DNA from: Stellaceae bacterium
Lineage (GTDB): Bacteria; Pseudomonadota; Alphaproteobacteria; ATCC43930; CGMCC-115725
DNA length: 64,000 bases
NCBI GenBank assembly: GCA_035605975.1
Contig: DATNGG010000167.1
Location: forward strand, 643 to 64,642
Direction: 5' to 3'
Of the stretch, positions 12,488-37,896 are shown in pieces. Positions within the stretch are counted from its first letter, which is position 1; every line of letters starts with the position of its first letter. The position numbers and the translations under genes are program-made. The notes beneath the pieces were generated by a model. It was not told the DNA's origin. It made no database searches and was given only the letters and a program-made list of their open reading frames with translations.

Positions 12488-12496
12488 GATTGTGAT

Positions 12497-13632: not shown

Positions 13633-13640
13633 CGCGCGAT

Positions 13641-14427: not shown

Positions 14428-14604
14428 TCACGAGCTCGATTCCGTCGTATCGCCGTCCGTAGAGTGGCTCTCCGGTGCATCGGCGGAAATGGTTTCTTGC
14501 GTCGCCGCTTTTTCGGCGCGACGCTGCATTTTTGCCTGCTTCCTCTGTTCCTTCGCGCGCTCTCGATCGGCGCGCTGCATGCGATAGTTCGGCTTGAAAG
14601 GCAT
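14428..14604 (-). CDS. Small basic protein (58 aa), absent from the supplied ORF track
   Basis: AAGGAG SD 4 nt before ATG 14604. Translation: MPFKPNYRMQRADRERAKEQRKQAKMQRRAEKAATQETISADAPESHSTDGDTTESSS*. GC-rich third codon positions. Confidence 0.45.
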   Translation of the reverse strand: MPFKPNYRMQRADRERAKEQRKQAKMQRRAEKAATQETISADAPESHSTDGDTTESSS

Positions 14605-14834
14605 TGTACTCCTTAGTGCTCTCGCTAGCGCAGATGAACTTCGGTTCGCATTCTGCGATCGGGCGTTACCCGTCCGTCAAAATAATGAAAAGGAGATCGA
14701 AGGTCACTCGCAGAGAGCAAAGGGCCAGTGATTCGTCGAATCCAACTTAGATAATATCGGTCGTTCCAACGTTGCTTGCAACCTCGCAGTTTTGACCGCC
14801 CGCAAGCGCCTCCAGGCCCTTTGCCGATGCGAGG

Positions 14835-15104
14835 CTAGGGGAAATCCGACGTGCGTAAAAGAATCGATGTTTTTTGGTCTTGCACGTCATATTTGTCGCT
14901 GGCTTTTTGTTGGATCGCCGTGCGCCATTTGTCGAAGGCGGCCAGGCAGGATTGCTTGCTGCCGCGACCGGCGCCGAAATGATCGATGAGTGCTTCCATC
15001 GAGATCGCGCAGGGCCGCGGATTGCCGGAATCCTCGCCAAGAAAATTGACAATGTTTCTTCTTAGATCCCAGCCCCGAATTTGCTTTGGGAACATAAGTG
15101 GCAT
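14835..15104 (-). CDS. DUF1488-like small protein
   Basis: 89 aa. Pattern ..WDLRRNIVNFLGEDSGNPRPCAISMEALIDHFGA...CLAAFDKWRTAIQQKASDKY resembles DUF1488 (recalled). Confidence 0.4.
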   Translation of the reverse strand: MPLMFPKQIRGWDLRRNIVNFLGEDSGNPRPCAISMEALIDHFGAGRGSKQSCLAAFDKWRTAIQQKASDKYDVQDQKTSILLRTSDFP

Positions 15105-15165
15105 CTCACCGCCCCATTGCTCGCGTCAAGTGACGCGATTTCGAAATCTCAATCGGTCACTTTCC

Positions 15166-15645
15166 TCAACGTCTGGGAAAGATTCGCTTGGCGACGGGCC
15201 AAAAGATCTCGTCATGCAGATCAAGCAGCGATTCGTGAAGCCAATAATGAGTATTCAGCAAGGCATGAAGCGGCGTTTCCTGCGCGGGCAATCGGGGTTG
15301 CCTTTCGACGTCTTCCATCCAGCATCCGGCTGCGTCAAAAGCGTCGCGTGCGACATCTGTCAGGCGTTGCTCATCGAGGTGTTCGATTGGGCCGAATCCA
15401 TATTGATCCGAAACGAACTGCAAAATGCGGCCGAGAGCTTGGTCGCGTTGGTTTCTTGCGGTCGCTATTCGCCGCCTCGCCACCTCCGGATCACCCCCGC
15501 TGTCCGCGTAGGCGGTGTAGATCACCTCGTAATCTTCTGCGTTTAACGGGTGAGCATCGTTACGGTCCCGATCTTCTCGTTCGATCGACTCGACGGTGGA
15601 AGCTAGCCGGCTCAAGAAGGCGGCGTCGAAGATTTTCTCATTCAT
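15166..15645 (-). CDS. Hypothetical protein (159 aa)
   Basis: AGGA 6 nt upstream of ATG 15645 (MNEKIFDAAF...). Acidic, ordinary composition. No family recognised. Confidence 0.4.
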   Translation of the reverse strand: MNEKIFDAAFLSRLASTVESIEREDRDRNDAHPLNAEDYEVIYTAYADSGGDPEVARRRIATARNQRDQALGRILQFVSDQYGFGPIEHLDEQRLTDVARDAFDAAGCWMEDVERQPRLPAQETPLHALLNTHYWLHESLLDLHDEIFWPVAKRIFPRR

Positions 15646-16408
15646 CGTCATTCCTGTTGAAATGGTCCAAGGCATTTTGTTGAGGCGCTTGAGTACGCAA
15701 CGGGGTTCTTAACTCCGTTTGAAATTTATTTTCGCCCCGAAAGAAATGTGCAATATCCGCAGATTCTCTCCGCTTGGAATTATCGCGGTTCCAAAAGGCC
15801 CAGCCATGCAATGAGCATAGCCATTATTGCGTTAATTGTTGGATTTTCGCGAAGACAAGTCCCATATAGCACGAACGAGATCAGGTCAATGGCCGCGGCG
15901 ATCCAATGCCAGCTCGCAATAAAGAGAGACGCCGAGAATCGCGAGCGGTGGCCGCTCTTTGGGACGCGACACGGAATGGTCGCAATATGGCGATGGAAGA
16001 ATTCGAGACCACGGCCATCGATGGGGTGCTATTGGGCCCCATCGTCTGGGCGCTCCGCTACTCGGCCGGCGAGGTTTACCTCAGGGAGGTTGAAACGAGC
16101 TCCATCTCGGCATGAGCACTTCCAGTGCGGGCACGAGCGCGCAGACCCGCCGTAAGTGGCAAGACCCGTCGTCCGCAGTCATGAATTCCGAGTCTCTCGA
16201 CAATGAGGCACTAACGCGCGGCATCATTGGTGTGCGCGGGCGAGATGTTTCAGCAATCGCCCGAGAAAATACGCGGAGATCGGCGCTCGCGGGAAGGGCC
16301 GAAGAAACGCGGAATTGGCTCAGGGTGCTCAAGCTGATTCAGCAGCAAGAGTAGGCGCTGCCAGCATAATCAGTCTTTCCCCAATTGAAACGGGGGGATT
16401 GGCCTGCG

Positions 16409-25003: not shown

Positions 25004-27412
25004 GTGACGCCGCCCGATGGGAATCGCGCCGCGCCGCGGCCGGCCCGGGCACCGCGCGTGCGCGGGCGCCTCTTCCGCAAATATGTCGTGCTGTTCGCCG
25101 CGGTGGTCTCGATCGTCCTTCTCGCCAACGGCTTGCTCGAGATCTGGTTCTCATACCAGGACCACGAGGCCTCGCTCATCCGCTTGCAGCAGGAGCAGGC
25201 GGAATCGGCCGCGGCCAAGCTCGGCGAATTCGTCACCGAGATCGAAAGCCAGGTCGGCTGGACGACGCAATTGTCGTGGTCGGCGAACAGCCTCGAGCAG
25301 CGCCGCTTCGACGCGCTGCGGCTGCTGCGGCAGGTTCCGGCGGTCACGGAGCTGGCTTTGCTCGATTCGGCCGGCAAGGAAAGGCTGCGCGTCTCGCGCA
25401 TCGCCATGGACGTCGTCGGCAGCGAGCGCGACTTTTCGCAGACGCCCGAATTCACCGAGGCCGTTGCGCACAAAATCTATATCAGCCCGGTCCATTTCCT
25501 GCGCGAGTCCGAGCCCTATATCACCCTGGCGCTCGCCGGAACGCGGCGCGAGAACGGCGTCAGCGTCGCCGAGGTCAATCTCAAATTGATGTGGGACGTG
25601 GTCTCGCACATCAAGGTCGGCACGCACGGCGTCGCCTATGTCGTCGATCGGCAAGGCCGGCTGATCGCGCATCCCGATATCAGCCTCGTTCTGCGCAACA
25701 CCGACATGTCGCGCCTCGCGCAATTTCGCGCGGCGCGCGACGCAACCGACAACAGCAGCGCTGACGCCGTCCAGATCGCGGATGACATCCACGGTCGCCG
25801 CGTGCTGACCGCCTACGCCGTCGCCGCCCCCATGGGTTGGCTCGTCTTCGTCGAGCTTCCGGTCGCCGAGGCCTATGGCCCGCTCTACACCGCGATCCTT
25901 CGCTCGATCCTTCTCCTGTCGGCGGCTCTCGTCCTTGCCGGCCTCGCCGGATTTTTCCTTGCCCGCCGGATGGTCGGGCCGATCCTCGCCTTGCGGGCCG
26001 GCGCCTTGCGCATCGGCAGCGGCGACTTCGCCCAGCGCATTGCGATCAAGACGGGCGACGAGCTCGAAGTGCTCGCCGACCAGTTCAACGACATGGGCAG
26101 CCGGCTCCAGCAGTCCTATGCCGATCTCGAGAAAAAGGTCGAGCTGCGCACCCGCGAGCTGGCGCAGTCGGTCGAGGAGCTCCGTGCCTTGGGCGAGGTC
26201 AGCCAAGCCGTCAACTCGACGCTCGATGTGTCCTCGGTCCTCGCGACCATCGTTGCGAAAGCCGTCCAGCTTTCCGAGACGGATGCCGGCGCGATTTATG
26301 TCTTCGACGAGCCTCGCCAGGAATTCGCGCTGCGCGCGACGCATGGCATGTCCGACGATCTCATCGACGCCATCACCCGCCATCAGGCGGAGCTCGGCGA
26401 CACCACCATCGGCGAAGCCGCCCAAACCGGCAAGCCGACCCAGATTCCCGATCTCCTCGAAACGCCGCATCTCCCGCTCCAACAGCTCGTCCTCCAGGCG
26501 GGCTTCCGGGCGCTGTTGGTGGTGCCTCTCCTTCGCGGCAATCGTATCATCGGCGCGCTTGTCGTCCGGCGCCGCGCACCCGGCTCCTTTCCCTCGGCCA
26601 TTGTCGAGTTGCTCGAGACCTTTGCGGCGCAATCGGCGCTCGCCATCCACAATGCCAGCCTCTTCACCGAGATCGACGAGAAGAGCCGCGAGCTCGAAGT
26701 CGCGAGCCAGCACAAATCGCAGTTCCTCGCTAATGTCAGCCATGAGCTGCGCACGCCGCTCAACGCCATCCTTGGCTATACCGAACTGGTGCTCGACGAC
26801 ATCTATGGCCAGGTGCCGAATAAGATCCGCGAGGTACTGAAACGCGTGCAGACGAACGGCCAGCATCTGCTGGGGCTGATCAACGACGTGCTCGATCTCT
26901 CGAAGATCGAAGCGGGGCAGATGGCGCTCTCGGTTACGGCATATTCGCTCGACGACATTCTTCACGGCGTCGTCGCGTCGCTCGAGCCGCTCGCCGCCGA
27001 AAAGCGGCTGAAGCTCGCGCTCGATCTCGCGCCTGGCCTGCCGATCGGCCATGGCGATGCCCGGCGCATCGCGCAGGTCCTGCTCAATCTCGTCGGCAAC
27101 GCCATCAAATTCACCGATCGCGGCGAGGTTGGGGTGGCGGCCATGGCCGAAAATGGGCGCTTCCGCATCGCGGTGCGCGACACCGGTCCGGGGATCCCGC
27201 CCGCCGAGCAGAAAAGGGTGTTCGACGAATTTCACCAGGTCGACAATTCCACCACCAAAGCCAAAGGCGGAACGGGTCTTGGCCTCGCCATCGCCAAGCA
27301 GATCATCGACCTGCATGGCGGCAAAATCTGGCTCGACTCGAAGCCCGGCCAAGGCTCGACCTTCACGATCAGCCTTCCGGTCGTGGTGGAACGGCAGATG
27401 GAGCGCGTATGA
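25004..27412 (+). CDS. Sensor histidine kinase (TM - Cache-like - TM - HAMP - GAF - HisKA - HATPase_c)
   Basis: 802 aa. HAMP: ARRMVGPILALRAGALRIGSGDFAQRI. GAF: ALGEVSQAVNSTLDVSSVL... H-box: FLANVSHELRTPLNAILGY. N and G boxes: LLNLVGNAIKFT, DTGPGI, GTGLGLAIAK. Confidence 0.9.
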   Translation: MTPPDGNRAAPRPARAPRVRGRLFRKYVVLFAAVVSIVLLANGLLEIWFSYQDHEASLIRLQQEQAESAAAKLGEFVTEIESQVGWTTQLSWSANSLEQRRFDALRLLRQVPAVTELALLDSAGKERLRVSRIAMDVVGSERDFSQTPEFTEAVAHKIYISPVHFLRESEPYITLALAGTRRENGVSVAEVNLKLMWDVVSHIKVGTHGVAYVVDRQGRLIAHPDISLVLRNTDMSRLAQFRAARDATDNSSADAVQIADDIHGRRVLTAYAVAAPMGWLVFVELPVAEAYGPLYTAILRSILLLSAALVLAGLAGFFLARRMVGPILALRAGALRIGSGDFAQRIAIKTGDELEVLADQFNDMGSRLQQSYADLEKKVELRTRELAQSVEELRALGEVSQAVNSTLDVSSVLATIVAKAVQLSETDAGAIYVFDEPRQEFALRATHGMSDDLIDAITRHQAELGDTTIGEAAQTGKPTQIPDLLETPHLPLQQLVLQAGFRALLVVPLLRGNRIIGALVVRRRAPGSFPSAIVELLETFAAQSALAIHNASLFTEIDEKSRELEVASQHKSQFLANVSHELRTPLNAILGYTELVLDDIYGQVPNKIREVLKRVQTNGQHLLGLINDVLDLSKIEAGQMALSVTAYSLDDILHGVVASLEPLAAEKRLKLALDLAPGLPIGHGDARRIAQVLLNLVGNAIKFTDRGEVGVAAMAENGRFRIAVRDTGPGIPPAEQKRVFDEFHQVDNSTTKAKGGTGLGLAIAKQIIDLHGGKIWLDSKPGQGSTFTISLPVVVERQMERV

Positions 27413-27771
27413 CAAAGCGCGTACTCGTGGTCGAGGACCACGAAGACAACCGGCAAATCCTGCGCGACCTTTTGGGCAGCGCCGGATTCGAGATCATCGA
27501 GGCCGAAAACGGCGAAGAGGCGGTGACGCTCGCCGAGACCGGCCGGCCCGACGTCATTCTGATGGATATTCAACTGCCGGTTCTCGATGGCTATGAGGCG
27601 ACGCGGCGCATCAAGGCCAATCCCCGCTCGCGCTCGATCCCAGTGATCGTCGTGACCTCCTATGCGCTGAGCGGCGACGAGGAGAAGGCCCGGCTCGCGG
27701 GATGCGATGATTACGTCTCGAAGCCCTTCAGCCCGCGCGACTTGCTGGCCAAGATCAGGCGTTATGTGTGA
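27409..27771 (+). CDS. Single-domain response regulator (CheY-like receiver)
   Basis: VLVVEDHEDNRQIL..PDVILMDIQLPVLDG..SIPVIVVTSYA..DDYVSKPF. ATGA overlap with the kinase stop. Confidence 0.9.
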   Translation: MTKRVLVVEDHEDNRQILRDLLGSAGFEIIEAENGEEAVTLAETGRPDVILMDIQLPVLDGYEATRRIKANPRSRSIPVIVVTSYALSGDEEKARLAGCDDYVSKPFSPRDLLAKIRRYV

Positions 27772-27789
27772 GGGAGCGACCGGAACGCG

Positions 27790-28902
27790 ATGCAGGATCC
27801 GCCGCGCATATTGATCGTCGACGACAACGAGGCCAACCGCGACATCGTCAAGACGCGTCTCGCGGTGAACGGCTACGAATTTCTCGAGGCCGCGGATGGC
27901 GAGCAGGCGCTCGATGCGGCACGGCGCTTTGCGCCGGACCTGATCCTGCTCGATGTGATGATGCCGAAGATCGACGGCATCGAGGTCTGCCGCCGGCTGA
28001 GGGCCGAGGCGGGTGCGCCGTTCGTTCCGATCATCCTGGTGACGGCGCGCACCGACAGCCGCGACGTGGTGGCGGGGCTCGAAGCCGGGGCGGATGAGTA
28101 TCTAACCAAGCCTGTGGACCAGATCGCGCTGGTGGCCCGCGTCAAATCGATGCTGCGCCTCAAAGAGCTGCATGACCGCGTCACCGCTCATGCGCGCGAC
28201 CTCGCGGACTGGAACCGGGCCTTGGAGCAGCGTGTCGCCGATCAGGTCGGCGAGATCGAACGCATCGGCCAGCTGAAGCGGTTTCTCTCGCCGCAGATCG
28301 CGGAGATGATCGTCTCGACTGGCAATGAGAAAATCCTCGAAAGCCATCGCCGCGAGATCACCGTCGTCGTCTGCGACCTGCGCGGCTTCACCGCCTTCTC
28401 CGACACGGCCGAGCCCGAAGACGTCATGACGCTGCTGCGCGAATACCAGGCAACGCTCGGCCGGCTCATCGATAAATACGAGGGAACCCTCGAGCGGTTC
28501 ACGGGCGACGGGCTCCTCGTCTGGTTCAACGATCCCGTCCCCTGCCTCGATCCTTGCAGCCGCGCCGCGCGCATGGCGATCGACATGCGGGATTCGGTCT
28601 CGCGCATGACGGCGAAATGGCGCGACCTCGACCACAATCTCGGATTTGCGATCGGGATCGCCCATGGCTACGCGACGCTTGGCCGGATCGGCTTCGAGCG
28701 GCGCTTCGACTATGCCGCCGTCGGGGTGGTCGTCAACCTCGCGGCGCGGCTTTGCGCCGAGGCGAGCGACACGCAAATCTTCATCGACAGCAAGGTCTTT
28801 GCCGCGATTTCGGCGCAGGCAACGGCGGAGCCGGTCGGCGAGCTGGCGCTGAAAGGTTTCAACCGCCCGGTGAAGGCTTATAATCTTCTGGCGGCGCGAT
28901 GA
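27790..28902 (+). CDS. Response regulator receiver fused to a class III adenylate/guanylate cyclase
   Basis: Receiver: ILIVDDNEANR..DLILLDVMMPKIDG..DEYLTKP. Coiled linker. Cyclase: ITVVVCDLRGFTAFSD...ERFTGDGLLVWFNDP...IGIAHGYATLGRIG. Confidence 0.9.
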   Translation: MQDPPRILIVDDNEANRDIVKTRLAVNGYEFLEAADGEQALDAARRFAPDLILLDVMMPKIDGIEVCRRLRAEAGAPFVPIILVTARTDSRDVVAGLEAGADEYLTKPVDQIALVARVKSMLRLKELHDRVTAHARDLADWNRALEQRVADQVGEIERIGQLKRFLSPQIAEMIVSTGNEKILESHRREITVVVCDLRGFTAFSDTAEPEDVMTLLREYQATLGRLIDKYEGTLERFTGDGLLVWFNDPVPCLDPCSRAARMAIDMRDSVSRMTAKWRDLDHNLGFAIGIAHGYATLGRIGFERRFDYAAVGVVVNLAARLCAEASDTQIFIDSKVFAAISAQATAEPVGELALKGFNRPVKAYNLLAAR

Positions 28903-29618
28903 TGTCGGAAGAAAGGCGGCGCGCTGTGGCAGCCGATGCGATCTCGCAGGATTTAGTCCGGCATTTGGGCAAATGCCTGTTGTTCCGCGCGCTCGACGAT
29001 GCGGCGCGCGAAGAGCTTGCCTCGCGCGTGCACCACCGCCAGTTCAAATCGGGCGAGCCGATCTTCCATGTCGGCGCTCCCGGCCAAAGCATGATGGTGA
29101 TCCTCAAAGGCACAGTCAGAGTGTCGCTCCCCGGCCCCACCGGCAAGACCGTCATCCTCGCCGATCTCACCACCGGCGACATTCTCGGCGAGGTCGCTCT
29201 GCTCGATGGCGGGGGCCGCTCCGCCGATGCGACGGCGCTGACCAATTGCACGGTGGCAACGCTCGAGCGGCGCGAGGTTCTGCCGCTGATCGAGAAGCGG
29301 CCGGAAGTCTGCCTGAAGCTGCTCGAGCTGATGTGCGCGAGGCTGCGAAAATCGGACGAGCGCATGGCGGAGATCGCGTTCTTCGAGCTGCCGGCGCGGT
29401 TGGCGAAAGTCCTGCTCGAGCGGATCGGCCAAGCCGGCGGCAGCGCACCGAAATTGTCGCTATCGCAGAGCGAGCTCGCGAGCATGATCAATGCGAGCCG
29501 AGAGAACGTCAATCGCTGTCTCAAGGATTGGCAGCGCCGCGGCCTGGTGAGCCTCGACGAGCGCTGGATCAGCATCCTGCAGCGCGACGCCCTCGGCGAT
29601 ATCGCAAGCCGCCTTTGA
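28899..29618 (+). CDS. Crp/Fnr-family cyclic-nucleotide-binding transcriptional regulator
   Basis: cNMP-binding domain (FKSGEPIFHVGAPGQSMMVILKGTVRV..GDILGEVALLDGGGRSADATA) plus C-terminal HTH (LSQSELASMINASRENVNRCLKDW). ATGA overlap with the cyclase stop. Confidence 0.9.
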   Translation: MMSEERRRAVAADAISQDLVRHLGKCLLFRALDDAAREELASRVHHRQFKSGEPIFHVGAPGQSMMVILKGTVRVSLPGPTGKTVILADLTTGDILGEVALLDGGGRSADATALTNCTVATLERREVLPLIEKRPEVCLKLLELMCARLRKSDERMAEIAFFELPARLAKVLLERIGQAGGSAPKLSLSQSELASMINASRENVNRCLKDWQRRGLVSLDERWISILQRDALGDIASRL

Positions 29619-30787: not shown

Positions 30788-31105
30788 ATGCCGGAAATCA
30801 ACCCGAAGCTCAGCCGCGCGGCGGTGAAACGCTCGGCTCGCAAGACAGCGGCGGGCAAGGGCCGCGTGCCGCTTCCCGGCGTCAAGACCGACGCCAAGCA
30901 CGTCGACGCTTCCGACAAATGCGCTTATGCGGAAAACCGCGAACTGGCGCGGCTGATCGAGAAGGCGATGCGCACCGTCAAGAAGCACGACAAGAACGGT
31001 CAGCACTTCGTCCTCGGCTGGCGGCTCTATCCCAATCGCGATCATCCGCGGTGGAAGAACAAGGATGTTCATTCCTGCGGATGCGGCTGCGGCTGCGGCT
31101 CCTAG
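30788..31105 (+). CDS. Candidate RiPP precursor peptide, 105 aa, C-terminal (Cys-Gly)4-Ser
   Basis: GAGGAGGA SD 6 nt upstream of ATG 30788. Translation: MPEINPKLSRAAVKRSARKTAAGKGRVPLPGVKTDAKHVDASDKCAYAENRELARLIEKAMRTVKKHDKNGQHFVLGWRLYPNRDHPRWKNKDVHSCGCGCGCGS*. GC-rich third positions. Sits directly upstream of a DUF692 operon. Confidence 0.6.
   Translation: MPEINPKLSRAAVKRSARKTAAGKGRVPLPGVKTDAKHVDASDKCAYAENRELARLIEKAMRTVKKHDKNGQHFVLGWRLYPNRDHPRWKNKDVHSCGCGCGCGS
31076..31099 (+). repeat. Coding hexanucleotide tandem repeat TGCGG(A/C) x4
   Basis: tgcgga tgcggc tgcggc tgcggc, encoding CGCGCGCG at the 3' end of the precursor ORF. Confidence 0.95.
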
Positions 31106-31172: not shown

Positions 31173-32027
31173 ATGCCAGCATCGCCGACGCAGGGCATTG
31201 GCGTGTTGTCGAGTATTTCCTTCAGCGGAACGAGGCTGGCAGATGCCTTCCTCAAAGGGCTCGGCCGCGAGGTCTATCTCAATGTGAAAGACAATCGCGG
31301 CTACGACGCGAAATCGCTGAACGAGGCTCTGCAAGCGCTGAACAACGACATCAAGATCGGCTTGATCGTGACGGCCGGCGGCCTGGTGGTGGCGCAGGAA
31401 GCGGGGAAGGATACGGGCGCGACCCTGCCCTTCATCTCGCTGGTTGGCGGCACGCCCGGCCCCTTCCCAAGCCGCGGCCAGGGATATTTTCGCGGCGGCG
31501 TGAGCCTCGAATCCTTTGCCGAAAATCCGCACCGGCTCGCTCACCTCGCCGGTCTCGGCATTCCCGAAAGCAAAACCTGCCTCCTCTCCAATCCCAATTC
31601 CTCGATGGCCGCCGCCGAAACCGCAGCATGGACGGCAGGCAAGCGCGGCCCGGTGATCAAGGCGGGAAGCGTCAGCAAGGGCAGCGCCAACAGTGCCGCG
31701 ACCTATCGGCCGGCTTTTGCCGAGATCGAGAAAGCCGGAATGATGGCCGTCGTCGTCAGCGCCGATCCCTTCTTCCAGGAAACCATGGAAGAGCTGATCG
31801 ACGCGGCTAATCGCTGGATCGCGCAGGGCAAGGGCCGGCGGATCAGCTATCCCTTGCACGAATATGAAAATCCCGCCGGGAAGTGCAAGCCCGCGCCCGG
31901 TTACACACTGCACGGCCCGGTTCTCGAAGAGGCCTATGAGGCGTTGGGCCGGATGGCGGCCGATTTCCTCGCCGATCAGCCCATTCGGCTGCAAACCCTC
32001 GGGCTCAGCGCGCCGCGCGATCGATGA
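31173..32027 (+). CDS. Signal-less (cytoplasmic) PF04392/ABC_sub_bind-like protein
   Basis: GGGGAGG SD 6 nt before the ATG. Alignable by eye with the secreted SBP at 35700: LIVTAGGLVVAQEAGKDTGATLPFISLVG vs LIAATGGVVSAKAALKATTSIPVVFVVG; VVVSADPFF vs LIVSADPYF; YPLHEY vs YPLRQY; HGPVLEEAYEALGRMAADFL vs YGPNLEHAYRDAGIYAGRIL. No N-terminal hydrophobic signal. Confidence 0.65.
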   Translation: MPASPTQGIGVLSSISFSGTRLADAFLKGLGREVYLNVKDNRGYDAKSLNEALQALNNDIKIGLIVTAGGLVVAQEAGKDTGATLPFISLVGGTPGPFPSRGQGYFRGGVSLESFAENPHRLAHLAGLGIPESKTCLLSNPNSSMAAAETAAWTAGKRGPVIKAGSVSKGSANSAATYRPAFAEIEKAGMMAVVVSADPFFQETMEELIDAANRWIAQGKGRRISYPLHEYENPAGKCKPAPGYTLHGPVLEEAYEALGRMAADFLADQPIRLQTLGLSAPRDR

Positions 32028-33679
32028 AGCCTGGACGTTCGGCGCAACGGATCGGAACGGCATCGCAAGCGAATGCTGGCCCGGACGCCGCGCCGCTTGT
32101 GGGGATCGGGTACCGCGCCGTGCTCGCGGATTGGACGCGCGCTCATCTGGCGCGCTTCGATGTGCTCGAAATCACCGTCGATCACTGCCTCTATGCCGGG
32201 CCGGCGCAGCGCCGACACATCGACGAGCTCGTCGAGCGCGTTCCGCTCACCGCGCACGGCATCGGGCTATCGATCGGCACGGATTGTCCGCTCGATCCTG
32301 CCTATCTCGACCAAGTCGGCATCGTCATCGAGCGGCTGAAGGCGCCCGCCTATAGCGAGCATCTCGCCTTCACGCGCGTCCCGGGCCGCGATCTCGGCAA
32401 TCTCTTGCCCGTGCCGCGAACCGAGGCGGCGGCAGCGCAGATCGTCGCGAAAATCCGCGACATCCGCGCGCGGCTCGGCGTGCCGTTCCTCATCGAGAAT
32501 ATCGCCAATATTTTCGAATGGCCGCAATCGACCCTGTCGGAAGCCGAATTCATCAGCCTGATTTGCCGCGAATCCGGCGCCGGGCTGCTGCTCGATATCG
32601 AAAACCTGCGCCTCAACGCGCGCAATCATCATGTCGATGCCCGCGCATTTCTCGACGCCTTGCCGCCGGGTCTGGTGCGAGAGATGCACATGGCGGGCGG
32701 CATCGCGGTGCGCGATGCAAGCTCCGGCGCCTCGATCCTCGCCGATTCGCACTCGCATCCGGTCGGCGAGGAGACGCTCGCCCTTCTCGATTATGCGCTG
32801 AAGCGGCATCGCCCGCAGACGCTCATCCTCGAGCGCGACGACCGGCTCGAGGCCGGCGACGAGATTCTGGCCGATGTCGCGCGGATTCGCGCGCTGCTTG
32901 CCGAGCGTAATGCTGCGATCGATCCGGCGCCCGAGCATCGGCGGGAGACGCTCCTCGCTCGGCAGACCCAATTGCTCGCCTATCTCACCAGCGCGCCGGC
33001 CATTTTCGGCGGCGGCCCGGCGGCGGCGCTTCCGCCGCTGCTCGAAGGTATCGATCCCGTCCGGCTCGATTTCGAGGCGCGCTTCTCGCATGAGAAACGC
33101 ATGGAAAAGCTTGCAAGAATCTTCCCGCGCACGCTCGATCTGTTGGAAGCACAACGAGCGGAGCTCCTCCAAGCCTTTGCCGAGGCTTGCCCGCCGGCGA
33201 GCATCGGATTGTTGGAAACGGCGCAGCAATTCTTGGATTTCCTGTCGGCGCGCCCGCCGCGCGCGGGCCGCTCGAACTATGCGTGCGATGTTGCCCGATG
33301 CGAGCTCGCCCTCGCACAGGCGCGCTTTCGCCGAGGCGAGCCGCCAAAGCGCACGCGGCGCAGCGCGCCGGCGCATGGCGCCCCGCATGCCGTACGACGC
33401 GCCGAATCCGTCGCGCTTGTCCGGTGCGCGCACGATGTCCGAAGCCTTTTTGAGAGCGCGGCCGTCTCGGCCGCGCCGCAAAGGCGCGACACGCCGCTGG
33501 TGATCGCCCAGAGCCGCGCGGCGTTGGAGCCCGAAATTTTCGAGATTCCCGCGGCGCTCTTCGATCTCCTTGCGTCACTCGAGCATTGGACCGAGCGGCG
33601 TTGCCTTGGCCGCAATCCCGGCGCCGACGCCCTCATCGCCGATCTCGTGACGCGCGGCCTGCTGGAGGTGCGCGCTTGA
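32024..33679 (+). CDS. DUF692 / MNIO (MbnB-like multinuclear non-heme iron oxidase) fused to a DUF2063-like C-terminal domain
   Basis: N-terminal ~290 aa match the DUF692 pattern: VGIGYR..FDVLEITVDH..PLTAHGIGLSIGT..PAYSEHLAFT..LLPVPRTEAA..PFLIENIANIF..GLLLDIENLRLNARNH..EMHMAGG..LADSHSHPV..TLILERDD. C-terminal ~250 aa (..RLDFEARFSHEKRMEKLARIFPRTLDLL..LLQAFAEACPPAS..AQQFLDFLSA..) resemble DUF2063 partner proteins. ATGA overlap with the upstream gene. Confidence 0.85.
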   Translation: MKPGRSAQRIGTASQANAGPDAAPLVGIGYRAVLADWTRAHLARFDVLEITVDHCLYAGPAQRRHIDELVERVPLTAHGIGLSIGTDCPLDPAYLDQVGIVIERLKAPAYSEHLAFTRVPGRDLGNLLPVPRTEAAAAQIVAKIRDIRARLGVPFLIENIANIFEWPQSTLSEAEFISLICRESGAGLLLDIENLRLNARNHHVDARAFLDALPPGLVREMHMAGGIAVRDASSGASILADSHSHPVGEETLALLDYALKRHRPQTLILERDDRLEAGDEILADVARIRALLAERNAAIDPAPEHRRETLLARQTQLLAYLTSAPAIFGGGPAAALPPLLEGIDPVRLDFEARFSHEKRMEKLARIFPRTLDLLEAQRAELLQAFAEACPPASIGLLETAQQFLDFLSARPPRAGRSNYACDVARCELALAQARFRRGEPPKRTRRSAPAHGAPHAVRRAESVALVRCAHDVRSLFESAAVSAAPQRRDTPLVIAQSRAALEPEIFEIPAALFDLLASLEHWTERRCLGRNPGADALIADLVTRGLLEVRA

Positions 33680-35703
33680 AGATTTGCATCATCGGCAAGT
33701 TTCCTCCGATCGAGGGTGGGGTGAGCATGCGCACCTATTGGTCGGCGCATCGGCTCGCGGCGCGCGGACATGAGGTCCATGTCGTGACCAACGCAAAAGA
33801 GGCGGCGCCGCCCTTTCGCATGCATATGCGCGCGGAGGATTGGGCGCGCTGCGCGGCCGATTACGGCGAAGGCCGGGTGACGGTTCACTGGAGCGATCCG
33901 GTCGACGCCTCGCAGCTTTACCTGCCGATGGCGAGCGCCTTCGTCTCGAAGCTCTCCTCCCTTGCCGCGCGCCTCTGCACGGAGCGCGCGATCGATGTGG
34001 TCTTCTCCCATTACCTCGAGCCTTATGGCGTCGCCGGACATTTGGCTGCCGAGATGGCGGGTTTGCCCCATGTCGTCCGTATGGCGGGAAGCGATTCGGG
34101 TCGCCTCTGGCGCCATCCGCAATTCGAGCCGCTTTACAACCACGTCTTGCGCTCGGCGGCCATTGTCGTCGCGACGGGCGTGGTCGCCGAACGAGCGGTG
34201 GCGCGCGGCGTCGATCCGGCGCGCATCGCCGCCGCGGGTTTCAGCCTGCCGGACGAGCTCTTCACCCCCTTCGGGCCTGCGCTCGATTACGCCGCTTTGC
34301 GCGCGGAAATCGCGGGAGCCGACGAGCCGCAGCGTCTTTGGGGTGGCTTCGCCTTGGACCGGCCGTTCTTTGGAATTTACGGCAAGCTCGGCGAGCGCAA
34401 AGGCTCCTTCGCGCTCCTCGCGGCGCTGGAGCGATTGAAGTGCGCGGGCATCGAGATTGGCCTCGTCGCTCTGGCGCATGGGCATGCGGCGACCGAAGCG
34501 GAATTTCGCCGCCACGTCGAAAGCCGCGGCCTCTTCGACCGGGTGTTGCAGCTTCCGTTTCTGCCGCATTGGCGCGTGCCCGAGTTCCTGCGCAGCTGCC
34601 TCGCTGTCTGCTGCCTCGAGCAGGATTTCCCGATCGCTCATCACACGCCGATCACGCCGCTCGAAGTCCTGCTCTGCGGCAAATGCCTCGTCGGCTCGGC
34701 GGAGCTCATCCGCAAGCTTCCGGATCATCGCCTCTTGCCGAGCGGCTATAGCTGCGTCGAGATCGCGGACGTCAACGATATCGACCGGCTGGCGGCACAG
34801 CTTGCCGCGATCGCCGAAGACCCGGCGCCGGCGGCGGCGATCGGCGCGCGCGGCTATGCGTTTGCGTGCGAATGCCAGGAGCAGGCCGAGTTTCCGGCCA
34901 AGCTGGAGCGCATTCTCGAAGTGGCGGCGGCGCGCCGAAACCTGGTCTCGTCACAAGAGGTATTGGCAGAGAGCGAGAGCGAGGAAGAGCGGAGCTTTCC
35001 CTTTGCGCGAATCGCGGCCGCCGCGCTCGCCGCGACGGAGTCGAAACCCGCCAAGACGAACGGCGCGCGGTTCGAACTCTCGGATGCGCAGACGGTTTTG
35101 GCGGCGCTCGATCGCGGGCGGCTCGCGGATCACCCAAAATCGGCATCGCTCGCTTCGGCCGTGTGGGCCGAAGTCGCGATCGCGCTTGCTCAAGGCGCGA
35201 CGCGAGAGCCCGAAGACATCGGAGCGGAACCGCCGCCGCTCGCCGCGTCCCGACGCTGGGGCTTGGCCGAGGGCGATCTCGCCAAGCTTTTTCCCCATCG
35301 CCGCCGGGATATAAAAGTGCTCACTTTCGACTGCGACATTGCCGCATTCCGGACAGCGAGGAACCTCGAGGAACTGCCCGACGCGCCGCGCCGCCATCCG
35401 AGCTATGTGATCGTGTTCAGCGGCCGCGGCTCGTCGCCGGCCGATCCGCTGCTGGTCGACCGCGCCACCGCGCGTATCCTCGAGCTCAGCGACGGAACGC
35501 GAACGACCCGCCAGATCATGGATCAATTGAAATGCGAGACGCAGCGCGGCGATACGGACGAGAATCTCGACTGGATCGAGGCCCTCTTCGTTGATGGGCT
35601 CATCCGCTTCACCGACTCGCCCGCGAGGCCCTCAGACGGTAGCATGATGCTGCGGCTGCGACATCCCCGCGCCAGCGGGACGGATGACAGGATGGCACAG
35701 TGA
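33676..35703 (+). CDS. GT4-type (GT-B) glycosyltransferase fused to a C-terminal PqqD-like RiPP recognition element
   Basis: TTG 33676 (GGAGG 7 nt upstream; TTGA overlap with the MNIO stop). N-terminus: KICIIGKFPPIEGGVSMRTYWSAHRLAARGHEVHVVT. C-terminal GT lobe: GIYGKLGERKG..PLEVLLCGKCLVGS. Last ~75 aa: YVIVFSGRGSSPADPLLVDRATARILELSDGTRTTRQIMDQLKCE..NLDWIEALFVDGLIRF, which follows the PqqD pattern. Confidence 0.8.
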   Translation: MKICIIGKFPPIEGGVSMRTYWSAHRLAARGHEVHVVTNAKEAAPPFRMHMRAEDWARCAADYGEGRVTVHWSDPVDASQLYLPMASAFVSKLSSLAARLCTERAIDVVFSHYLEPYGVAGHLAAEMAGLPHVVRMAGSDSGRLWRHPQFEPLYNHVLRSAAIVVATGVVAERAVARGVDPARIAAAGFSLPDELFTPFGPALDYAALRAEIAGADEPQRLWGGFALDRPFFGIYGKLGERKGSFALLAALERLKCAGIEIGLVALAHGHAATEAEFRRHVESRGLFDRVLQLPFLPHWRVPEFLRSCLAVCCLEQDFPIAHHTPITPLEVLLCGKCLVGSAELIRKLPDHRLLPSGYSCVEIADVNDIDRLAAQLAAIAEDPAPAAAIGARGYAFACECQEQAEFPAKLERILEVAAARRNLVSSQEVLAESESEEERSFPFARIAAAALAATESKPAKTNGARFELSDAQTVLAALDRGRLADHPKSASLASAVWAEVAIALAQGATREPEDIGAEPPPLAASRRWGLAEGDLAKLFPHRRRDIKVLTFDCDIAAFRTARNLEELPDAPRRHPSYVIVFSGRGSSPADPLLVDRATARILELSDGTRTTRQIMDQLKCETQRGDTDENLDWIEALFVDGLIRFTDSPARPSDGSMMLRLRHPRASGTDDRMAQ

Positions 35704-36692
35704 TCCGGCGGAATTTCCTCGCTCTTCTCGCCTCGCTGGCGCTGTGCCCGCCCGCGGCGCATGCGGATCAAGCCCCGGACCAGGCGGCAATGCCGGTCAT
35801 CGGCTTCCTGAACAGCGGCTCGCCGGCGGCGTTTGGGAATCTCGTTGCCGCCTTCCGCCAAGGCTTGGGCGATCAAGGCTATGCCGAAGGCTCGACCCTG
35901 CGGATCGATTACCGTTGGGCGCAGGGCCGCTACACCGATCTCGACGGCATGGCCGCGGAGCTGGTGCGCAACCGCGTGAGCCTTATCGCCGCCACGGGCG
36001 GCGTGGTCTCGGCCAAGGCCGCGCTCAAAGCGACGACGTCGATTCCGGTGGTGTTCGTCGTCGGCTTCGACCCGGTCGGATTGGGCCTCGTCAAAAGCCT
36101 CAACCAGCCCGGCGGCAACGCCACCGGCGTCAGCATCTTCACGACGGAATTGATCGCAAAGCGCGTCGAGCTGCTTTACGACCTCTCGCCCGGCATCAGC
36201 ACCGTCGCCATCCTGGTCAACCCCAAGGCGGTCGTCACCGACATCGAAATCCAGGAGACCATCGCGGCGATCCAGCGTTCCGGCCGCAAATTGCTCACGC
36301 TCAACGCGAACAACGAGAGCGAGATCGACGCCGCCTTCGCCTTGGCGGCCGAGCAGAAAGCCGGCGGGCTGATCGTCAGCGCCGATCCCTACTTCACCAG
36401 CCGCAGAGCGCAAATCGTCGCCCTCGCCGCGCGCCACGCAATCCCCGCGATCTATCCCTTGCGCCAATACGCCGATGCCGGCGGCCTCGTCAGCTATGGG
36501 CCCAATCTCGAGCACGCCTATCGCGACGCCGGGATTTATGCGGGCCGGATTCTGAAAGGCGCCAGCCCCAAGACGCTTCCGGTGGCGCTGCCGACGACCT
36601 TCAATCTCGTCATCAACCTCAAAGCCGCCAAGGCCCAAGGCCTCAAAGTGTCGCCGCTTCTCCTCGCCATCGCCAATGACGTGATCGAGTAA
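35700..36692 (+). CDS. Secreted ABC-type substrate-binding protein, PF04392 (ABC_sub_bind) family
   Basis: GTG start with a GTGA overlap on the GT stop. Signal peptide MIRRNFLALLASLALCPPAAHA. Family pattern: PVIGFLNSGSP..FRQGLGDQGY..IAATGG..PVVFVVGFDPV..GNATGVS... Confidence 0.85.
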   Translation: MIRRNFLALLASLALCPPAAHADQAPDQAAMPVIGFLNSGSPAAFGNLVAAFRQGLGDQGYAEGSTLRIDYRWAQGRYTDLDGMAAELVRNRVSLIAATGGVVSAKAALKATTSIPVVFVVGFDPVGLGLVKSLNQPGGNATGVSIFTTELIAKRVELLYDLSPGISTVAILVNPKAVVTDIEIQETIAAIQRSGRKLLTLNANNESEIDAAFALAAEQKAGGLIVSADPYFTSRRAQIVALAARHAIPAIYPLRQYADAGGLVSYGPNLEHAYRDAGIYAGRILKGASPKTLPVALPTTFNLVINLKAAKAQGLKVSPLLLAIANDVIE

Positions 36693-36717: not shown

Positions 36718-37896
36718 CTAGGCTGGGCTCTCGTCGCGCAACGGCGCGAGAAAATAGGCGGAGGGCAGCAGCGTGTGACCTGGCGCATCGACCCGATCGG
36801 CAATCCGCATATAAGAATTGACCCGAGACGATTTGCCGATCGCCCAGATCACCGCATTGCGCAAGGGATAGGCCGAGCGCGGCCATTCCGAGGTGATCCA
36901 GTCGTAGCGGCGGGACCAGGTTTGCGTCCGGTCGGCGACCCAGCGCCATGCGCCTTGCCAGGCGGTGAGGGCTTCCGGCACATCGCTGCGCGCGGACACA
37001 TAATCCGACAGCAGCAAACCATTCATCAAGGAGAGGCCGGCGCCTTGGCCAAGCGTCGGCGGCAGCGCATGGGCGGCATCGCCGAGCAAAGCGACGCGGC
37101 CTTTCACCCAGGACACCGCCCGCACGAAGGGATAGGGGTGGTGAACGCCGCCAGCTGCGTAAGCGCGCGCGAATAATCCCTCCGCGGCGAGTTTCGGAAA
37201 CCGCGCGCTCCAATAGTCGCGATCGATCGGCGTTTGCATGCCGCGTTGATCATCGAGAGGGGCGATGAAATAGCAGAAGGCCTCGGTCGGCGTGCAGGGG
37301 CAGACCCCCACCCGCAGCCGGCCCGACCAAAATTCGCGCACCATATCGTCCTTCTCGGGCGCGGTCCTCGAAACCAAGAGACGGATCGCGCCGCTCGAGG
37401 GCGGGCGAACCGGCTCATCAAGCGCCAGCGCGCGGCGCGCGAGCGAACTCACGCCGTCGGCGGCGATCACCAGCTCGGCTTGGTGAATTTCGCCGCGCAC
37501 GCGGATCGCGCCGCGCGCCTCGATGGCATCGACCGGAGAATCCGTGTGCACCCTCGCGCCGAGGGAGGTCGCGCGGTCGCACAGGGCGCGGATCAGCAAC
37601 TCGCGCTTGACGTTCCAGATCGAGGTCGTGTCGCGCAGCAAGCGCCGCTGCAGCAGCCGGCCCTCGCGGTCGAGCGTCCGCGCCTCGGCAAGCGCCACGC
37701 AATCGCCGCGGATCGCATCGATGACCCCGAAGCTTTCGAGAACGCGCAGAGCATTCCCTTTGACGAAGATGCCGGCGCCGATTTCCCGGATGGTTGGGCT
37801 GCGCTCATAGACATCGACGGACCACCCGTTTCGCGCCAAGCCGATCGCCGCGCCAAGCCCGGCAATGCCGCCCCCGCAGATGATTGCCTGTCGCAT
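36718..37896 (-). CDS. FAD-dependent aromatic-ring monooxygenase (salicylate hydroxylase/UbiH-like)
   Basis: GxGxxG: AIICGGGIAGLGAAIGL. Also DGVSSLAR and LLGDAAHALPPTLGQGAGLSL. Convergent with the RiPP-like operon. Confidence 0.85.
   Translation of the reverse strand: MRQAIICGGGIAGLGAAIGLARNGWSVDVYERSPTIREIGAGIFVKGNALRVLESFGVIDAIRGDCVALAEARTLDREGRLLQRRLLRDTTSIWNVKRELLIRALCDRATSLGARVHTDSPVDAIEARGAIRVRGEIHQAELVIAADGVSSLARRALALDEPVRPPSSGAIRLLVSRTAPEKDDMVREFWSGRLRVGVCPCTPTEAFCYFIAPLDDQRGMQTPIDRDYWSARFPKLAAEGLFARAYAAGGVHHPYPFVRAVSWVKGRVALLGDAAHALPPTLGQGAGLSLMNGLLLSDYVSARSDVPEALTAWQGAWRWVADRTQTWSRRYDWITSEWPRSAYPLRNAVIWAIGKSSRVNSYMRIADRVDAPGHTLLPSAYFLAPLRDESPA

Follow-up and report, generated by a model that had tools for sequence, protein, structure and literature searches.

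The window, a stretch of 64,000 nucleotides from a Stellaceae bacterium, contains a gene for a three-part enzyme, consisting of a GT4-type glycosyltransferase (aa 1-400), a helical linker and a C-terminal RRE (aa 526-652). We consider it rather probable that this protein, named GT4-RRE here, is a leader-guided glycosyltransferase which works together with an MNIO on the same precursor peptide. The combination of GT4-RRE, MNIO and a Cys-rich peptide in six phyla suggests that there is a family of sugar-decorated ribosomal natural products which has not been described so far.

Gene cluster and conservation

A PF05114 enzyme, its partner domain and a Cys-containing precursor are encoded together in the window (Table 1). 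The MNIO pathway context given in the initial annotation is supported by Pfam as well as by conserved loci. MNIO and partner domain are fused in the window (PF05114, E=5.5e-71; PF09836, E=1.4e-4) and are encoded by separate genes in the homologous locus L001. The NCBIfam matches of the fusion were BufB (9e-60, 202.2 bits vs. a cutoff of 310), HvfB (4e-52, 177.4 bits vs. 360) and HvfC (0.016). Since the equivalog cutoffs of both BufB and HvfB were missed, the window's MNIO is, judged by these scores, a distinct subfamily closest to BufB and HvfB.

Table 1. Features of the GT4-RRE locus (positions in the window).
Feature	Position	Strand	Evidence or remark
HExxH (HELTH) protein, 304 aa	29850..30764	+	sequence; weak Peptidase_MA_2 match, E=0.021; synteny
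Precursor (putative), 105 aa	30788..31105	+	motif FVLGWRLYPN, end HSCGCGCGCGS; conserved in loci
PBP-like cytoplasmic protein, 284 aa	31173..32027	+	paralogue of the 35700-36692 product; synteny
MNIO (aa 26-292) fused to DUF2063/HvfC-like partner domain (aa ~300-551)	32024..33679	+	PF05114, PF09836
GGAGG Shine-Dalgarno sequence	33664..33668	+	7 nt 5' of TTG, within the end of the MNIO-partner gene; direct reading
GT4-RRE fusion gene, 675-aa protein	33676..35703	+	TTG start overlaps stop of upstream gene
GT-B N-terminal Rossmann lobe, aa 14-185	33715..34230	+	PF13579 E=3.9e-15, PF13439 E=8.8e-10, BshA alignment
GT-B C-terminal nucleotide-sugar-binding lobe (predicted), aa 226-393	34351..34854	+	PF00534 E=2.8e-9, GlgM alignment, Foldseek
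Linker, mostly helical, aa 405-525	34888..35250	+	AlphaFold2 secondary structure/pLDDT
RRE-type recognition module (predicted), aa 526-652	35251..35631	+	AlphaFold2, Foldseek, hhalign, PqqD matches of orthologues
Periplasmic ABC substrate-binding protein, 330 aa, signal peptide	35700..36692	+	PF04392 E=1.5e-47
FAD-dependent monooxygenase, 392 aa	36718..37896	-	PF01494 E=2.4e-20; convergent with operon

The precursor has no signal peptide, and its cysteines 97, 99, 101 and 103 are encoded at 31076-31096. Its homologues form 314 clusters, nearly all of exactly 105 aa and all annotated as 'hypothetical'. The HELTH protein, syntenic across the alphaproteobacterial clade, is a candidate leader peptidase. 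In the same clade the PBP-like gene is kept between precursor and MNIO; its product lacks a signal peptide, shows 28% identity (BLASTP, E=6e-10) to the substrate-binding protein encoded behind GT4-RRE and gave no match in Pfam, NCBIfam and PDB searches. The gene for this substrate-binding protein overlaps with its start the stop codon of the GT4-RRE gene and comes after the glycosyltransferase in many loci. The FAD monooxygenase is syntenic in L001-L003, L005, L009, L017, L041, L043, L047 and L052. Genes for nucleotide-sugar biosynthesis were not identified beside the cluster.

The GT4-RRE gene is located 2.6 kb downstream of the precursor gene. Its longest open reading frame extends from 33586 to 35703 on the plus strand; homologues start later, at the TTG in position 33676. 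Homology begins at residue 1 of the protein (MKICIIGKFPP) in 80 loci (tblastn), and the 675-aa homologue P0001 is 99% identical at 100% coverage. The reading frame of about 675 aa in the initial annotation is real and its start is backed by these homologues. All motifs quoted there (KICIIGKFPPIEGGVS...HVVT, GERKG, PLEVLLCGKCLV, LLVDRATARILELSDGTRTTRQIMDQL...LDWIEALFVDGLIRF) were located in the protein. The gene is translationally coupled to the MNIO-partner fusion gene, whose TGA stop overlaps the TTG start as TTGA. More than 900 homologues of the protein exist and the full architecture of ~650-700 aa is kept in the best 120 of them, so the GT4-RRE gene is not a product of chance. In public annotation the label is 'glycosyltransferase involved in cell wall biosynthesis'.

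Sufficient flanking DNA was available for 53 long-form homologues from six phyla, and 51 of them have an MNIO in the locus. The median distance is 771 nt, usually with just the partner gene in between, and many of the loci contain poly-Cys precursors, too. The two remaining long-form loci stayed below the threshold for an MNIO match, and their partial matches to MNIO and partner are read as incomplete detection, not as absence. The co-occurrence of MNIO and long-form glycosyltransferase is near-obligate. The four homologues without an MNIO match in the fetched flank (L058, L078, L079, L080; the flank of two of them is short) comprise 399-452 aa and have no C-terminal extension. Apart from L058, which gave no MNIO match, the set of MNIO, partner and precursor is found across L001-L077. 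A longer cassette, running from the HExxH protein through precursor, PBP-like protein, MNIO and partner to the glycosyltransferase, is present in L001 and in about 40 loci of the Alphaproteobacteria.

The glycosyltransferase domain

Residues 1-400 of GT4-RRE form a GT4-type GT-B glycosyltransferase, as had been proposed for the N-terminal ~400 aa; the Pfam matches exceed the gathering scores and the predicted fold agrees. The N-terminal lobe matched Glyco_trans_4_4 (PF13579) with 57 bits (gathering cutoff 29.7) and PF13439 with 39.3 bits (cutoff 28.5), the C-terminal lobe Glycos_transf_1 (PF00534) with 37.2 bits (cutoff 26.4). No NCBIfam equivalog was matched by the domain, the best being BshA with 22.6 bits vs. 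a cutoff of 273.7. The whole monomer was modelled with AlphaFold2 (pLDDT 77.8) and the model was searched with Foldseek. It exhibits the two Rossmann-like lobes of the GT-B fold, and the leading matches were GT4 retaining enzymes, with GlgM (E=1e-16) followed by BshA, MshA and PimB' (TMt 0.6-0.76 for these three). GlgM (6tvp), BshA (3mbo, 6d9t), MshA (3c4q) and PimB' (3oka) have the two-lobe fold, the Pfam pair, the phosphate-binding G-K/R-x4-K-G motif, a Gly-rich loop in the N-terminal lobe and the Glu that binds the ribose in common with GT4-RRE, but identity is only 16-20% and none of them carries the ~270-aa C-terminal RRE extension.

The N-terminal lobe contains a Gly-rich loop (G14-G15) and an invariant AGSD (137-140) at the usual H-G-x-D position of GT4 enzymes, the C-terminal lobe contains GKLGERKG (K237, K242), CCLEQ (E315), H323 and E330. 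Conservation of G14, G15, K237, K242, E315, H323 and E330 is at least 97% in 71 homologues from six phyla. G236-K237-L-G-E-R-K242-G243 aligns with the phosphate-binding GRxxxxKG of GlgM (K237 and K242), and E330 is the counterpart of the second glutamate of the GlgM EX7E motif, which binds the ribose. On this alignment the phosphate- and ribose-binding residues are retained, and the donor-binding residues whose lack would have spoken against the initial annotation (K237, K242, E330) are present.

The active site differs from that of GlgM, BshA, MshA and PimB' in two respects. The canonical EX7E spacing is replaced by E315-x14-E330, with the first Glu displaced and an inserted loop holding the invariant H323; the first EX7E Glu of GlgM faces F318 in the HMMER alignment. 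Furthermore, the His of H-G-x-D is absent from the N-terminal lobe, where the invariant Ala137 (A137-G-S-D) stands opposite the H-G-T-D of BshA. With this atypical site, ordinary glycosyl transfer is not guaranteed. Cysteines are conserved near the donor site, C308 in the whole family and C312, C313 and C337 also in close homologues.

The displaced Glu, Ala137, the cysteines and H323 near the donor site as well as the missing equivalog might also indicate a diverged GT-B enzyme, which uses another activated donor or acts on a small molecule or on another pathway protein, with the RRE only tethering it; that sugar-nucleotide genes were not seen nearby would fit, too. We regard this alternative as fairly unlikely in view of the strong conservation of the phosphate-binding lysines, the ribose-binding Glu and the Gly-rich loop. 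Moreover, every one of the closest structural neighbours is a bona fide Leloir GT4 enzyme, and enzyme-fused RREs normally bring the peptide to the active site of the enzyme that carries them.

Linker and recognition module

The linker contains two loops of low confidence (AlphaFold2 pLDDT). Its initial description as a region without recognised family agrees with the Pfam search of aa 401-675, which gave zero family matches, but it holds only in part: hhalign gave 150 collinear columns with the MNIO partner of the same clade (E=1.6e-4), the C-terminal part of the linker matching the helical region of the partner domain encoded just upstream.

The RRE module comprises about 125 aa instead of the ~75 aa assumed initially, and contains the motif LLVDxxTARILELSDGTRTxxEI. 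In the AlphaFold2 model (pLDDT 84) a beta-hairpin precedes a winged helix of beta-beta-alpha-alpha-alpha-beta topology. AlphaFold2 and Foldseek yield a winged helix of three strands (51-56, 67-69, 118-121) and three helices (71-79, 86-97, 102-114; numbering of the 127-aa construct) resembling known RREs. The first Foldseek match was TglI (E=2e-3, TMq 0.61), followed by NGO1945 (E=0.16), TbiB1, MadB, MibB, NisB and ThcOx. RRE-bearing RiPP proteins are enriched among the matches, and the TbiB1 structure has a bound leader. Weak matches to generic winged helices (PKMT winged helix, MJ223) were obtained, too.

The profile search suggested with the initial annotation returned the glycosyltransferase families above cutoff but not PqqD in this copy, Pfam PqqD giving no match at E<=10 with aa 401-675 or aa 551-675. 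Sub-threshold NCBIfam matches of the C-terminus were PqqD (TIGR03859, E=0.046, 13.6 bits vs. a cutoff of 46) and ApyI (E=0.066), and PqqD 5sxy was the top PDB sequence match (E=0.03). PF05402 (PqqD) was matched directly by 7 of the 21 equivalent glycosyltransferase C-termini from other phyla (best E=3e-7). In hhalign, the module was homologous to the C-termini of MNIO partners, an established RRE-containing family (98.2%, E=4e-14), as were the distant glycosyltransferase C-termini (99.1%, E=1.2e-18). An HMM of the module retrieved MNIO partners in distant loci (iE 1e-7; 13,443 ORFs searched), which match HvfC, ApyI, NGO1945_C and PqqD. Predicted fold, hhalign and the Pfam matches of orthologues support that the C-terminus is an RRE of the PqqD superfamily. 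Of the PqqD-like RRE proposed initially, fold and homology therefore stand, while the window's own copy remains below the PqqD models.

According to these profile comparisons the module and the domain with which MNIO partners bind peptides at their C-terminus (PqqD/NGO1945_C/HvfC/TglI group) are paralogues. The closest relatives of the module are such domains of the HvfC/NGO1945_C/TglI type and not stand-alone PqqD, which had served as template. A homologous C-terminal module of ~125 aa is found in TglI (8hi7), in HvfC/BufC (DUF2063 with NGO1945_C, 3dee) and in ApyI. The motif L-x-L-(S/C)-D-G-T-R-T-x-x-E-I is common to MNIO partners and the GT4-RRE module, and they occur in the same gene clusters. 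In GT4-RRE the module is fused to a glycosyltransferase instead of the DUF2063 N-terminal domain or an MNIO, and it represents a second copy in the cluster, besides the MNIO's own partner. The predicted winged helix is similar to that of PqqD (PF05402, TIGR03859), and PqqD 5sxy can be aligned with it over the helix-DG-helix signature; the GT4-RRE module differs by an additional N-terminal beta-hairpin, by being enzyme-fused instead of free-standing and by scores below the Pfam/TIGRFAM thresholds.

An RRE paralogous to that of the partner, in a protein coupled translationally to the partner gene and nearly always accompanied by an MNIO, could likewise belong to a scaffold or chaperone, i.e. a catalytically inert protein with GT fold that uses the second RRE to help deliver the long precursor to the MNIO. 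This is quite improbable, since the GT lobes are highly conserved (57% mean column identity, many donor-binding positions invariant), which would be unexpected in an inert protein, and since the MNIO already has a partner domain of its own. An ordinary cell-envelope glycosyltransferase that neighbours the MNIO by chance and uses its winged helix for DNA binding or oligomerisation would agree with the public annotation and with the generic nature of winged helices, including the PKMT and MJ223 matches, but this reading is already disfavoured and most improbable given the MNIO in 51 of 53 long-form loci of six phyla, the start/stop codon overlap, the homology of the module to MNIO-partner RREs (98-99% probability) and the missing extension in the few homologues without MNIO match.

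Proposed role and comparison with known pathways

If GT4-RRE is a leader-guided glycosyltransferase cooperating with the MNIO, the two related recognition domains of MNIO partner and glycosyltransferase would bind the conserved leader segment of the precursor (FVLGWRLYPN; VEWTxRP or FELRAMKP in other phyla). The MNIO would oxidatively convert Cys residues of the C-terminal CGCGCGC core, probably into groups of the thiooxazole or oxazolone-thioamide type like those of bufferins and methanobactins, and the tethered GT domain would move a sugar from a nucleotide-sugar onto the same peptide. As no core residue other than Cys is common to the precursors of all phyla, the sugar would most likely be accepted by a Cys sulfur or by a group that the MNIO has generated. 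Points against this role are that no universally conserved Ser or Thr was found in the cores when loci were compared across phyla, and that to our knowledge there is no GT4 peptide S-glycosyltransferase. Poly-Cys precursors adjoin an MNIO in Acidobacteriota, Actinomycetota, Myxococcota and Bacillota. Binding of the leader, transfer of a glycosyl group to the peptide, the atom that accepts it, the identity of the donor sugar and the sequence of events are inferred.

For GT4-RRE a ribosomal peptide is predicted as acceptor, whereas GlgM, BshA, MshA and PimB' act on malate, inositol phosphate, lipid or glucan. Ribosomal peptides are also the substrates of the glycocin S-/O-glycosyltransferases SunS and ThuS, which glycosylate Cys. 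Fusions of an RRE to GT2 (PF00535) have been reported by structure-based RRE mining (PMC12710340). These fusions as well as SunS and ThuS are of the GT2/GT-A fold and none of them has been reported in an MNIO cluster, whereas GT4-RRE is of the GT4/GT-B type and nearly always paired with an MNIO. No report of an MNIO paired with a GT4 or other glycosyltransferase was found in the searchable literature, in line with the unusual combination noted initially, and no glycosyltransferase is described there for bufferin, HvfB-type or methanobactin pathways.

The cluster resembles the bufferin (BufB) and HvfB pathways in its Cys-rich precursor, DUF2063-like partner and related MNIO. The precursor, however, differs from those of the bufferin, HvfB and methanobactin pathways by the lack of a signal peptide, its length of 105 aa and its CGCGCGC motif. 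The nearby FAD monooxygenase and periplasmic binding protein recall MbnF and MbnE of methanobactin operons.

Gene context and distribution

The glycosyltransferase gene with a RiPP recognition element (RRE) lies in an ORF on the forward strand with its stop at 35703, the longest version of which begins at 33586. Judged from the sequence, the true start is the TTG at 33676, because four features agree. The nearest database protein (P0001, 99% identity, 100% coverage) comprises 675 aa as well, the tblastn alignments to 80 genomic loci start with residue 1 (MKICIIGKFPP), and the TTG overlaps the upstream gene's TGA stop (as TTGA) and has a GGAGG motif in front of it. More than 900 homologues of the protein were found. 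The best 120 of them are 625-746 aa long and cover 91-100% (mostly 95-97%) of the query, indicating that the three-part architecture of glycosyltransferase (GT) lobes, linker and C-terminal module is conserved and not accidental. Mean column identity was 57% in an alignment of 43 of the best homologues.

Features of the cluster in the window
Feature	Position	Strand	Remarks
HExxH protein, 304 aa	29850-30764	+	weak Peptidase_MA_2 match
Precursor, 105 aa, no signal peptide	30788-31105	+	ends HSCGCGCGCGS
PBP-like protein, 284 aa, no family match	31173-32027	+	paralogue of the downstream binding protein, without signal peptide
MNIO fused to DUF2063/HvfC-like partner domain	32024-33679	+	PF05114, E=5.5e-71
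GGAGG	33664-33668	+	precedes the TTG start; read from the sequence
GT-RRE gene	33676-35703	+	
Periplasmic binding protein	35700-36692	+	PF04392
FAD monooxygenase, convergent	36718-37896	-	

The MNIO (PF05114 enzyme) of the window is nearest to BufB and HvfB, yet it stays under both equivalog cutoffs. The 284-aa PBP-like protein shows 28% identity (E=6e-10) to the PF04392 substrate-binding protein (SBP) encoded downstream, and phmmer searches of the PDB sequences with this protein and with the 304-aa HExxH protein gave no match. A cytoplasmic PBP-like protein within a RiPP operon is unusual. Its homologue in L001, a 489-kb metagenome contig, carries a Lys-rich extension at the N-terminus.

A scan with one genome per species yielded 80 loci, which were compared by tblastn with the window proteins. 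The cassette of HExxH protein, precursor, PBP-like protein, MNIO, partner and GT was detected, whole or missing some members, in about 40 alphaproteobacterial MAGs. The hosts belong to Xanthobacteraceae, Stellaceae and Hyphomicrobiales, and the cassette is often followed by the genes for the SBP and the FAD monooxygenase. L001 contains the same cassette with MNIO and partner as two genes; there, a UbiD-family decarboxylase gene (9177-10889) follows the GT gene in the place of the SBP, and the FAD monooxygenase is retained. More remote GT homologues, 31-49% identical in the GT domain, likewise adjoin an MNIO. This applies to Acidobacteriota (Bryobacteraceae, Thermoanaerobaculia), Actinomycetota (Catellatospora, Mycobacterium, Kitasatospora, Nonomuraea, Spongiactinospora, Actinoallomurus), Myxococcota (Sorangium, Nannocystis, Corallococcus), Chloroflexota (Ktedonosporobacter) and one MAG of the Bacillota. 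In the Catellatospora locus L053 a gene resembling asparagine synthetase (N-terminus ...CGIVGY; 4307-6124, reverse strand) is located just upstream of the precursor-MNIO-GT set and may encode an extra tailoring enzyme of the actinobacterial version. Longest-ORF calling was too noisy to identify sugar-nucleotide genes in the distant loci of high GC content.

For a census of long-form GTs we considered homologues of at least 580 aa with enough flank and counted MNIO matches of 150 aa or more within the locus. Such a match was present for 51 of the 53 long-form GTs, with a median separation of 771 nt. Of the other two loci, one had a shorter MNIO match and one a partner match. The four loci with no MNIO match (L058, L078, L079, L080) encode GTs of 399-452 aa without the extension, and two of them had too little fetched flank to exclude an MNIO. 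The initial annotation had placed the gene in an MNIO pathway with a neighbouring precursor, and both the window genes and the census bear this out.

The glycosyltransferase half

All motifs quoted in the initial annotation were found in the 675-aa protein, and the GT-B/GT4 assignment of the N-terminal half was supported by Pfam, the predicted fold and its structural neighbours. Glyco_trans_4_4 matched aa 14-185 (E=3.9e-15) and Glycos_transf_1 aa 226-393 (E=2.8e-9), both above the gathering score. An AlphaFold2 model of the whole protein, built from the 43-sequence alignment (mean pLDDT 77.8, pTM 0.72), retrieved GT-B enzymes only in a Foldseek search against the PDB, led by retaining GT4 transferases (GlgM with 1e-16, then BshA, MshA, PimB' and HepE). 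No NCBIfam equivalog matched the GT, the best being BshA with 22.6 bits against a cutoff of 273.7.

Loss of the donor-binding residues would have spoken against a GT; these residues are retained. In the HMMER alignment the diphosphate-binding motif GRxxxxKG of GlgM lies opposite G236-K237...K242-G243, and its second EX7E glutamate opposite E330. Among 71 homologues from six phyla G14, G15, K237, K242, E315, H323 and E330 are each kept at 97% or more. The first glutamate of EX7E is displaced in CCLE315-QDFPIxxH323xPIxPxE330, which reads E-x14-E with a 4-residue insertion, and Ala137 (A-G-S-D) replaces the His of the H-G-x-D motif in the BshA N-lobe. Both departures from canonical GT4 enzymes are conserved as strongly as the donor-binding residues. 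Taken together, these alignments indicate a retained donor-binding framework with an unusual sugar pocket.

The displaced EX7E loop in the GT C-lobe is flanked by Cys308, Cys312, Cys313, Cys334, Cys337 and His323 (aa 308-337), which could form a metal or redox site. Cys308 and His323 are kept at 97% or more in all 71 homologues; Cys312, Cys313 and Cys337 are invariant and Cys334 is nearly invariant among the 43 close homologues.

The C-terminal recognition module

The initial annotation had described the C-terminus as a PqqD-like RRE behind a linker of about 200 aa belonging to no family. At E<=10 no Pfam match was obtained for aa 401-675, and aa 551-675 gave no PqqD match, the sole Pfam match being PKMT_2nd (E=0.11). 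Because of these direct scans we rejected the window copy as a member of Pfam PqqD. Below threshold, the module matched PqqD (TIGR03859, E=0.046) and the MNIO partner ApyI (E=0.066). A profile of the last 80 aa had PqqD 5sxy as top match among PDB sequences (E=0.03), followed by chance matches, e.g. to chemokines; the PqqD match is suggestive, a pointer and not decisive.

In an AlphaFold2 model of this segment by itself, aa 526-652 (pLDDT 84) form a beta-hairpin followed by a beta-beta-alpha-alpha-alpha-beta arrangement. Each Foldseek match of this model is weak on its own (E between 1e-3 and a few), and RRE-bearing RiPP proteins dominate among them: TglI of the TglHI MNIO holoenzyme (E=2e-3, TMq 0.61, 117 columns), NGO1945 (DUF2063), leader-bound TbiB1, MadB, MibB, NisB and ThcOx. 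Two carbamoyltransferases, GdmN and NovN (E~1e-3, TMq 0.55), head this list and rank level with or above the known RRE proteins.

When 13,443 ORFs of the fetched loci were searched with an HMM of the module, the matches fell into two groups, namely the C-termini of distant GT homologues and the MNIO partners of the same loci (L062 with iE=1.3e-7, L069 with 1.7e-7, L066 with 6e-7, L064 with 4e-6). These partner proteins match HvfC, ApyI, NGO1945_C and PqqD, and share the signature L-x-L-C-D-G-T-R-T-x-x-E-I with the GT module. In profile-profile comparison the module aligned with the last 135 aa of the distant-locus partners over 123 columns (98.2% probability, E=4e-14), and the distant GT C-termini matched these partners with 99.1% (E=1.2e-18). 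Seven of 21 distant GT C-termini matched Pfam PqqD directly (best E=3e-7). With the partner domain of its own clade, aa 400-655 gave an hhalign probability of 50% (E=1.6e-4), collinear over 150 columns. The partners from distant loci, and not the own-clade partner, gave the decisive evidence of homology.

We conclude that the module belongs to the RREs of the PqqD / NGO1945_C superfamily and is most closely related to the peptide-binding domains of MNIO partners. The earlier RRE assignment therefore stands, with MNIO-partner-type instead of PqqD as the better description, and the supposed linker, devoid of Pfam matches, is in part collinear with the own-clade partner domain.

A profile search of 1.84 billion representative proteins returned the module in only 214 clusters. 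In the 150 of these that were listed the match was nearly always near the C-terminal end; most were short metagenome fragments of the same GT family, the full-length matches had 631-676 aa, and no new architecture appeared. We conclude that this RRE subtype is specific to the GT fusion.

Precursors and proposed function

The alphaproteobacterial precursor forms 314 clusters, nearly all of exactly 105 aa and about 70% identity, annotated as 'hypothetical' throughout and without Pfam domain. F74, L76-N83 (LGWRLYPN), H86, W89, H95 and C97-G-C-G-C-x-C103 are invariant, and N-terminal positions including T20 and T34 are also conserved. Conservation extends from end to end in P0271-P0390, including the N-terminus MPEIYPK and LPGVKTDAKH, and resembles that of a small protein more than that of a disposable leader with a core. 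Several loci (L007, L017, L034, L047) contain two precursor copies. Homologues in L006, L014, L018, L028-L031 and L039 have Lys/Arg/Pro-rich tails beyond CGCGCGC (e.g. KKGKKKKKGAAKKKK), which means that the Cys motif need not stand at the C-terminus.

In other phyla the small MNIO-adjacent ORFs end in different poly-Cys motifs (CGCFCACGCSCIA, CVTNCGCSCIA, CVVCLICIVC, CIVCFVCFVCVVC, CICNGCNCLC, CSGCGSCSGCAHSGCSGCAH, CCCCCCCC, CVGCAGCAGCA), which are preceded by leader motifs of the VEWTxRP or FELRAMKP type. Poly-Cys motifs among the precursors include CGCGCGC, CGCFCACGCSC, CVVCLICIVC and CSGCGSCSGC. NCBIfam and Pfam hold no model for any precursor, and no NCBIfam match exceeded the threshold.

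The protein combines the three-part architecture, a module homologous to partner RREs and retained donor-binding residues; its gene is translationally coupled and almost always paired with an MNIO gene. It is probably a peptide-directed glycosyltransferase. The precursor leader would be bound by two paralogous RREs, that of the MNIO partner and that of the GT. By analogy with BufB, HvfB and MbnB, the MNIO would oxidise Cys of the presented peptide, and the GT lobes would move a sugar from a nucleotide-sugar onto the same peptide. The most plausible acceptor would be a Cys sulfur or an MNIO-derived group, since Cys is the sole residue type shared by all cores; in the alphaproteobacterial clade the invariant Thr residues might serve alternatively. 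The HExxH protein may act as leader peptidase. The leader-guided GT4 initially proposed for an MNIO pathway is partly supported, in that architecture and context agree with it; guidance would fall to a partner-type RRE rather than PqqD.

An activity that has diverged, either non-glycosyl or non-peptide, has to be weighed with the unusual sugar pocket on one side and the retained donor framework on the other, and we consider it rather unlikely. A scaffold role, to be set beside the RRE as well as the strictly kept donor residues, is more improbable still. That an envelope GT lies beside an MNIO cluster by coincidence is hardly credible next to the MNIO pairing of the long forms.

Beyond peptide-directed glycosylation, we tentatively propose that GT4-RRE, MNIO with partner and poly-Cys precursors might constitute an undescribed RiPP class in at least six phyla, with a retaining GT4 glycosylating the Cys sulfur or an MNIO-generated thiol or heterocycle, and an RRE derived from a duplicated MNIO-partner RRE. 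If true, no GT-B peptide S-glycosyltransferase and no glycosylated MNIO product would have preceded it; were the acceptor sulfur or a heterocycle derived from the MNIO reaction, the chemistry would be new as well.

MNIO enzymes supply a rapidly expanding range of unusual peptide chemistry (methanobactins, bufferins, pearlins), to which a GT as near-obligate third partner would bring a new modification type. Tailoring enzymes with a fused RRE are established, as are glycosylated RiPPs, and the S-glycosyltransferases of glycocins are GT2 enzymes. Fusions of RREs with GT2-type glycosyltransferases (PF00535) and with carbamoyltransferases have been reported from structure-based RRE mining (PMC12710340). 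In contrast to these GT2 fusions and to the glycocin enzymes, the present enzyme is a GT4/GT-B protein with a partner-type RRE. A survey of MNIO clusters covers partners, precursors and several accessory families; its text and the supplements searched mention no glycosyltransferase (PMC12452194). No relevant report came up when the literature was searched for MNIO or DUF692 together with glycosyltransferases or glycosylation. Hence, such an enzyme as constant member of an MNIO pathway appears to be undescribed in the searchable literature. It would also illustrate a route to substrate targeting in which a tailoring enzyme copies the recognition domain of the core enzyme's partner. For genome mining, a GT4 with partner-type RRE beside PF05114 offers a handle selecting poly-Cys precursors, none of them in any curated family model, in soil Alphaproteobacteria, Acidobacteriota, Actinomycetota, Myxococcota, Chloroflexota and Bacillota.

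The DNA directly upstream of the cluster (25004-29618, forward strand) encodes a sensor histidine kinase-like protein of 802 aa and contains an ORF of 120 aa, followed by genes for a 370-aa protein with response-regulator and cyclase-like parts and for a Crp-family regulator (cNMP_binding and HTH_Crp_2); these genes may control the cluster. The G+C content is 0.59-0.64 in the first 12 kb of the window, 0.55-0.57 at 12001-16000 and about 0.65 at 24-64 kb, and the region 12001-16000 may be a foreign insertion.
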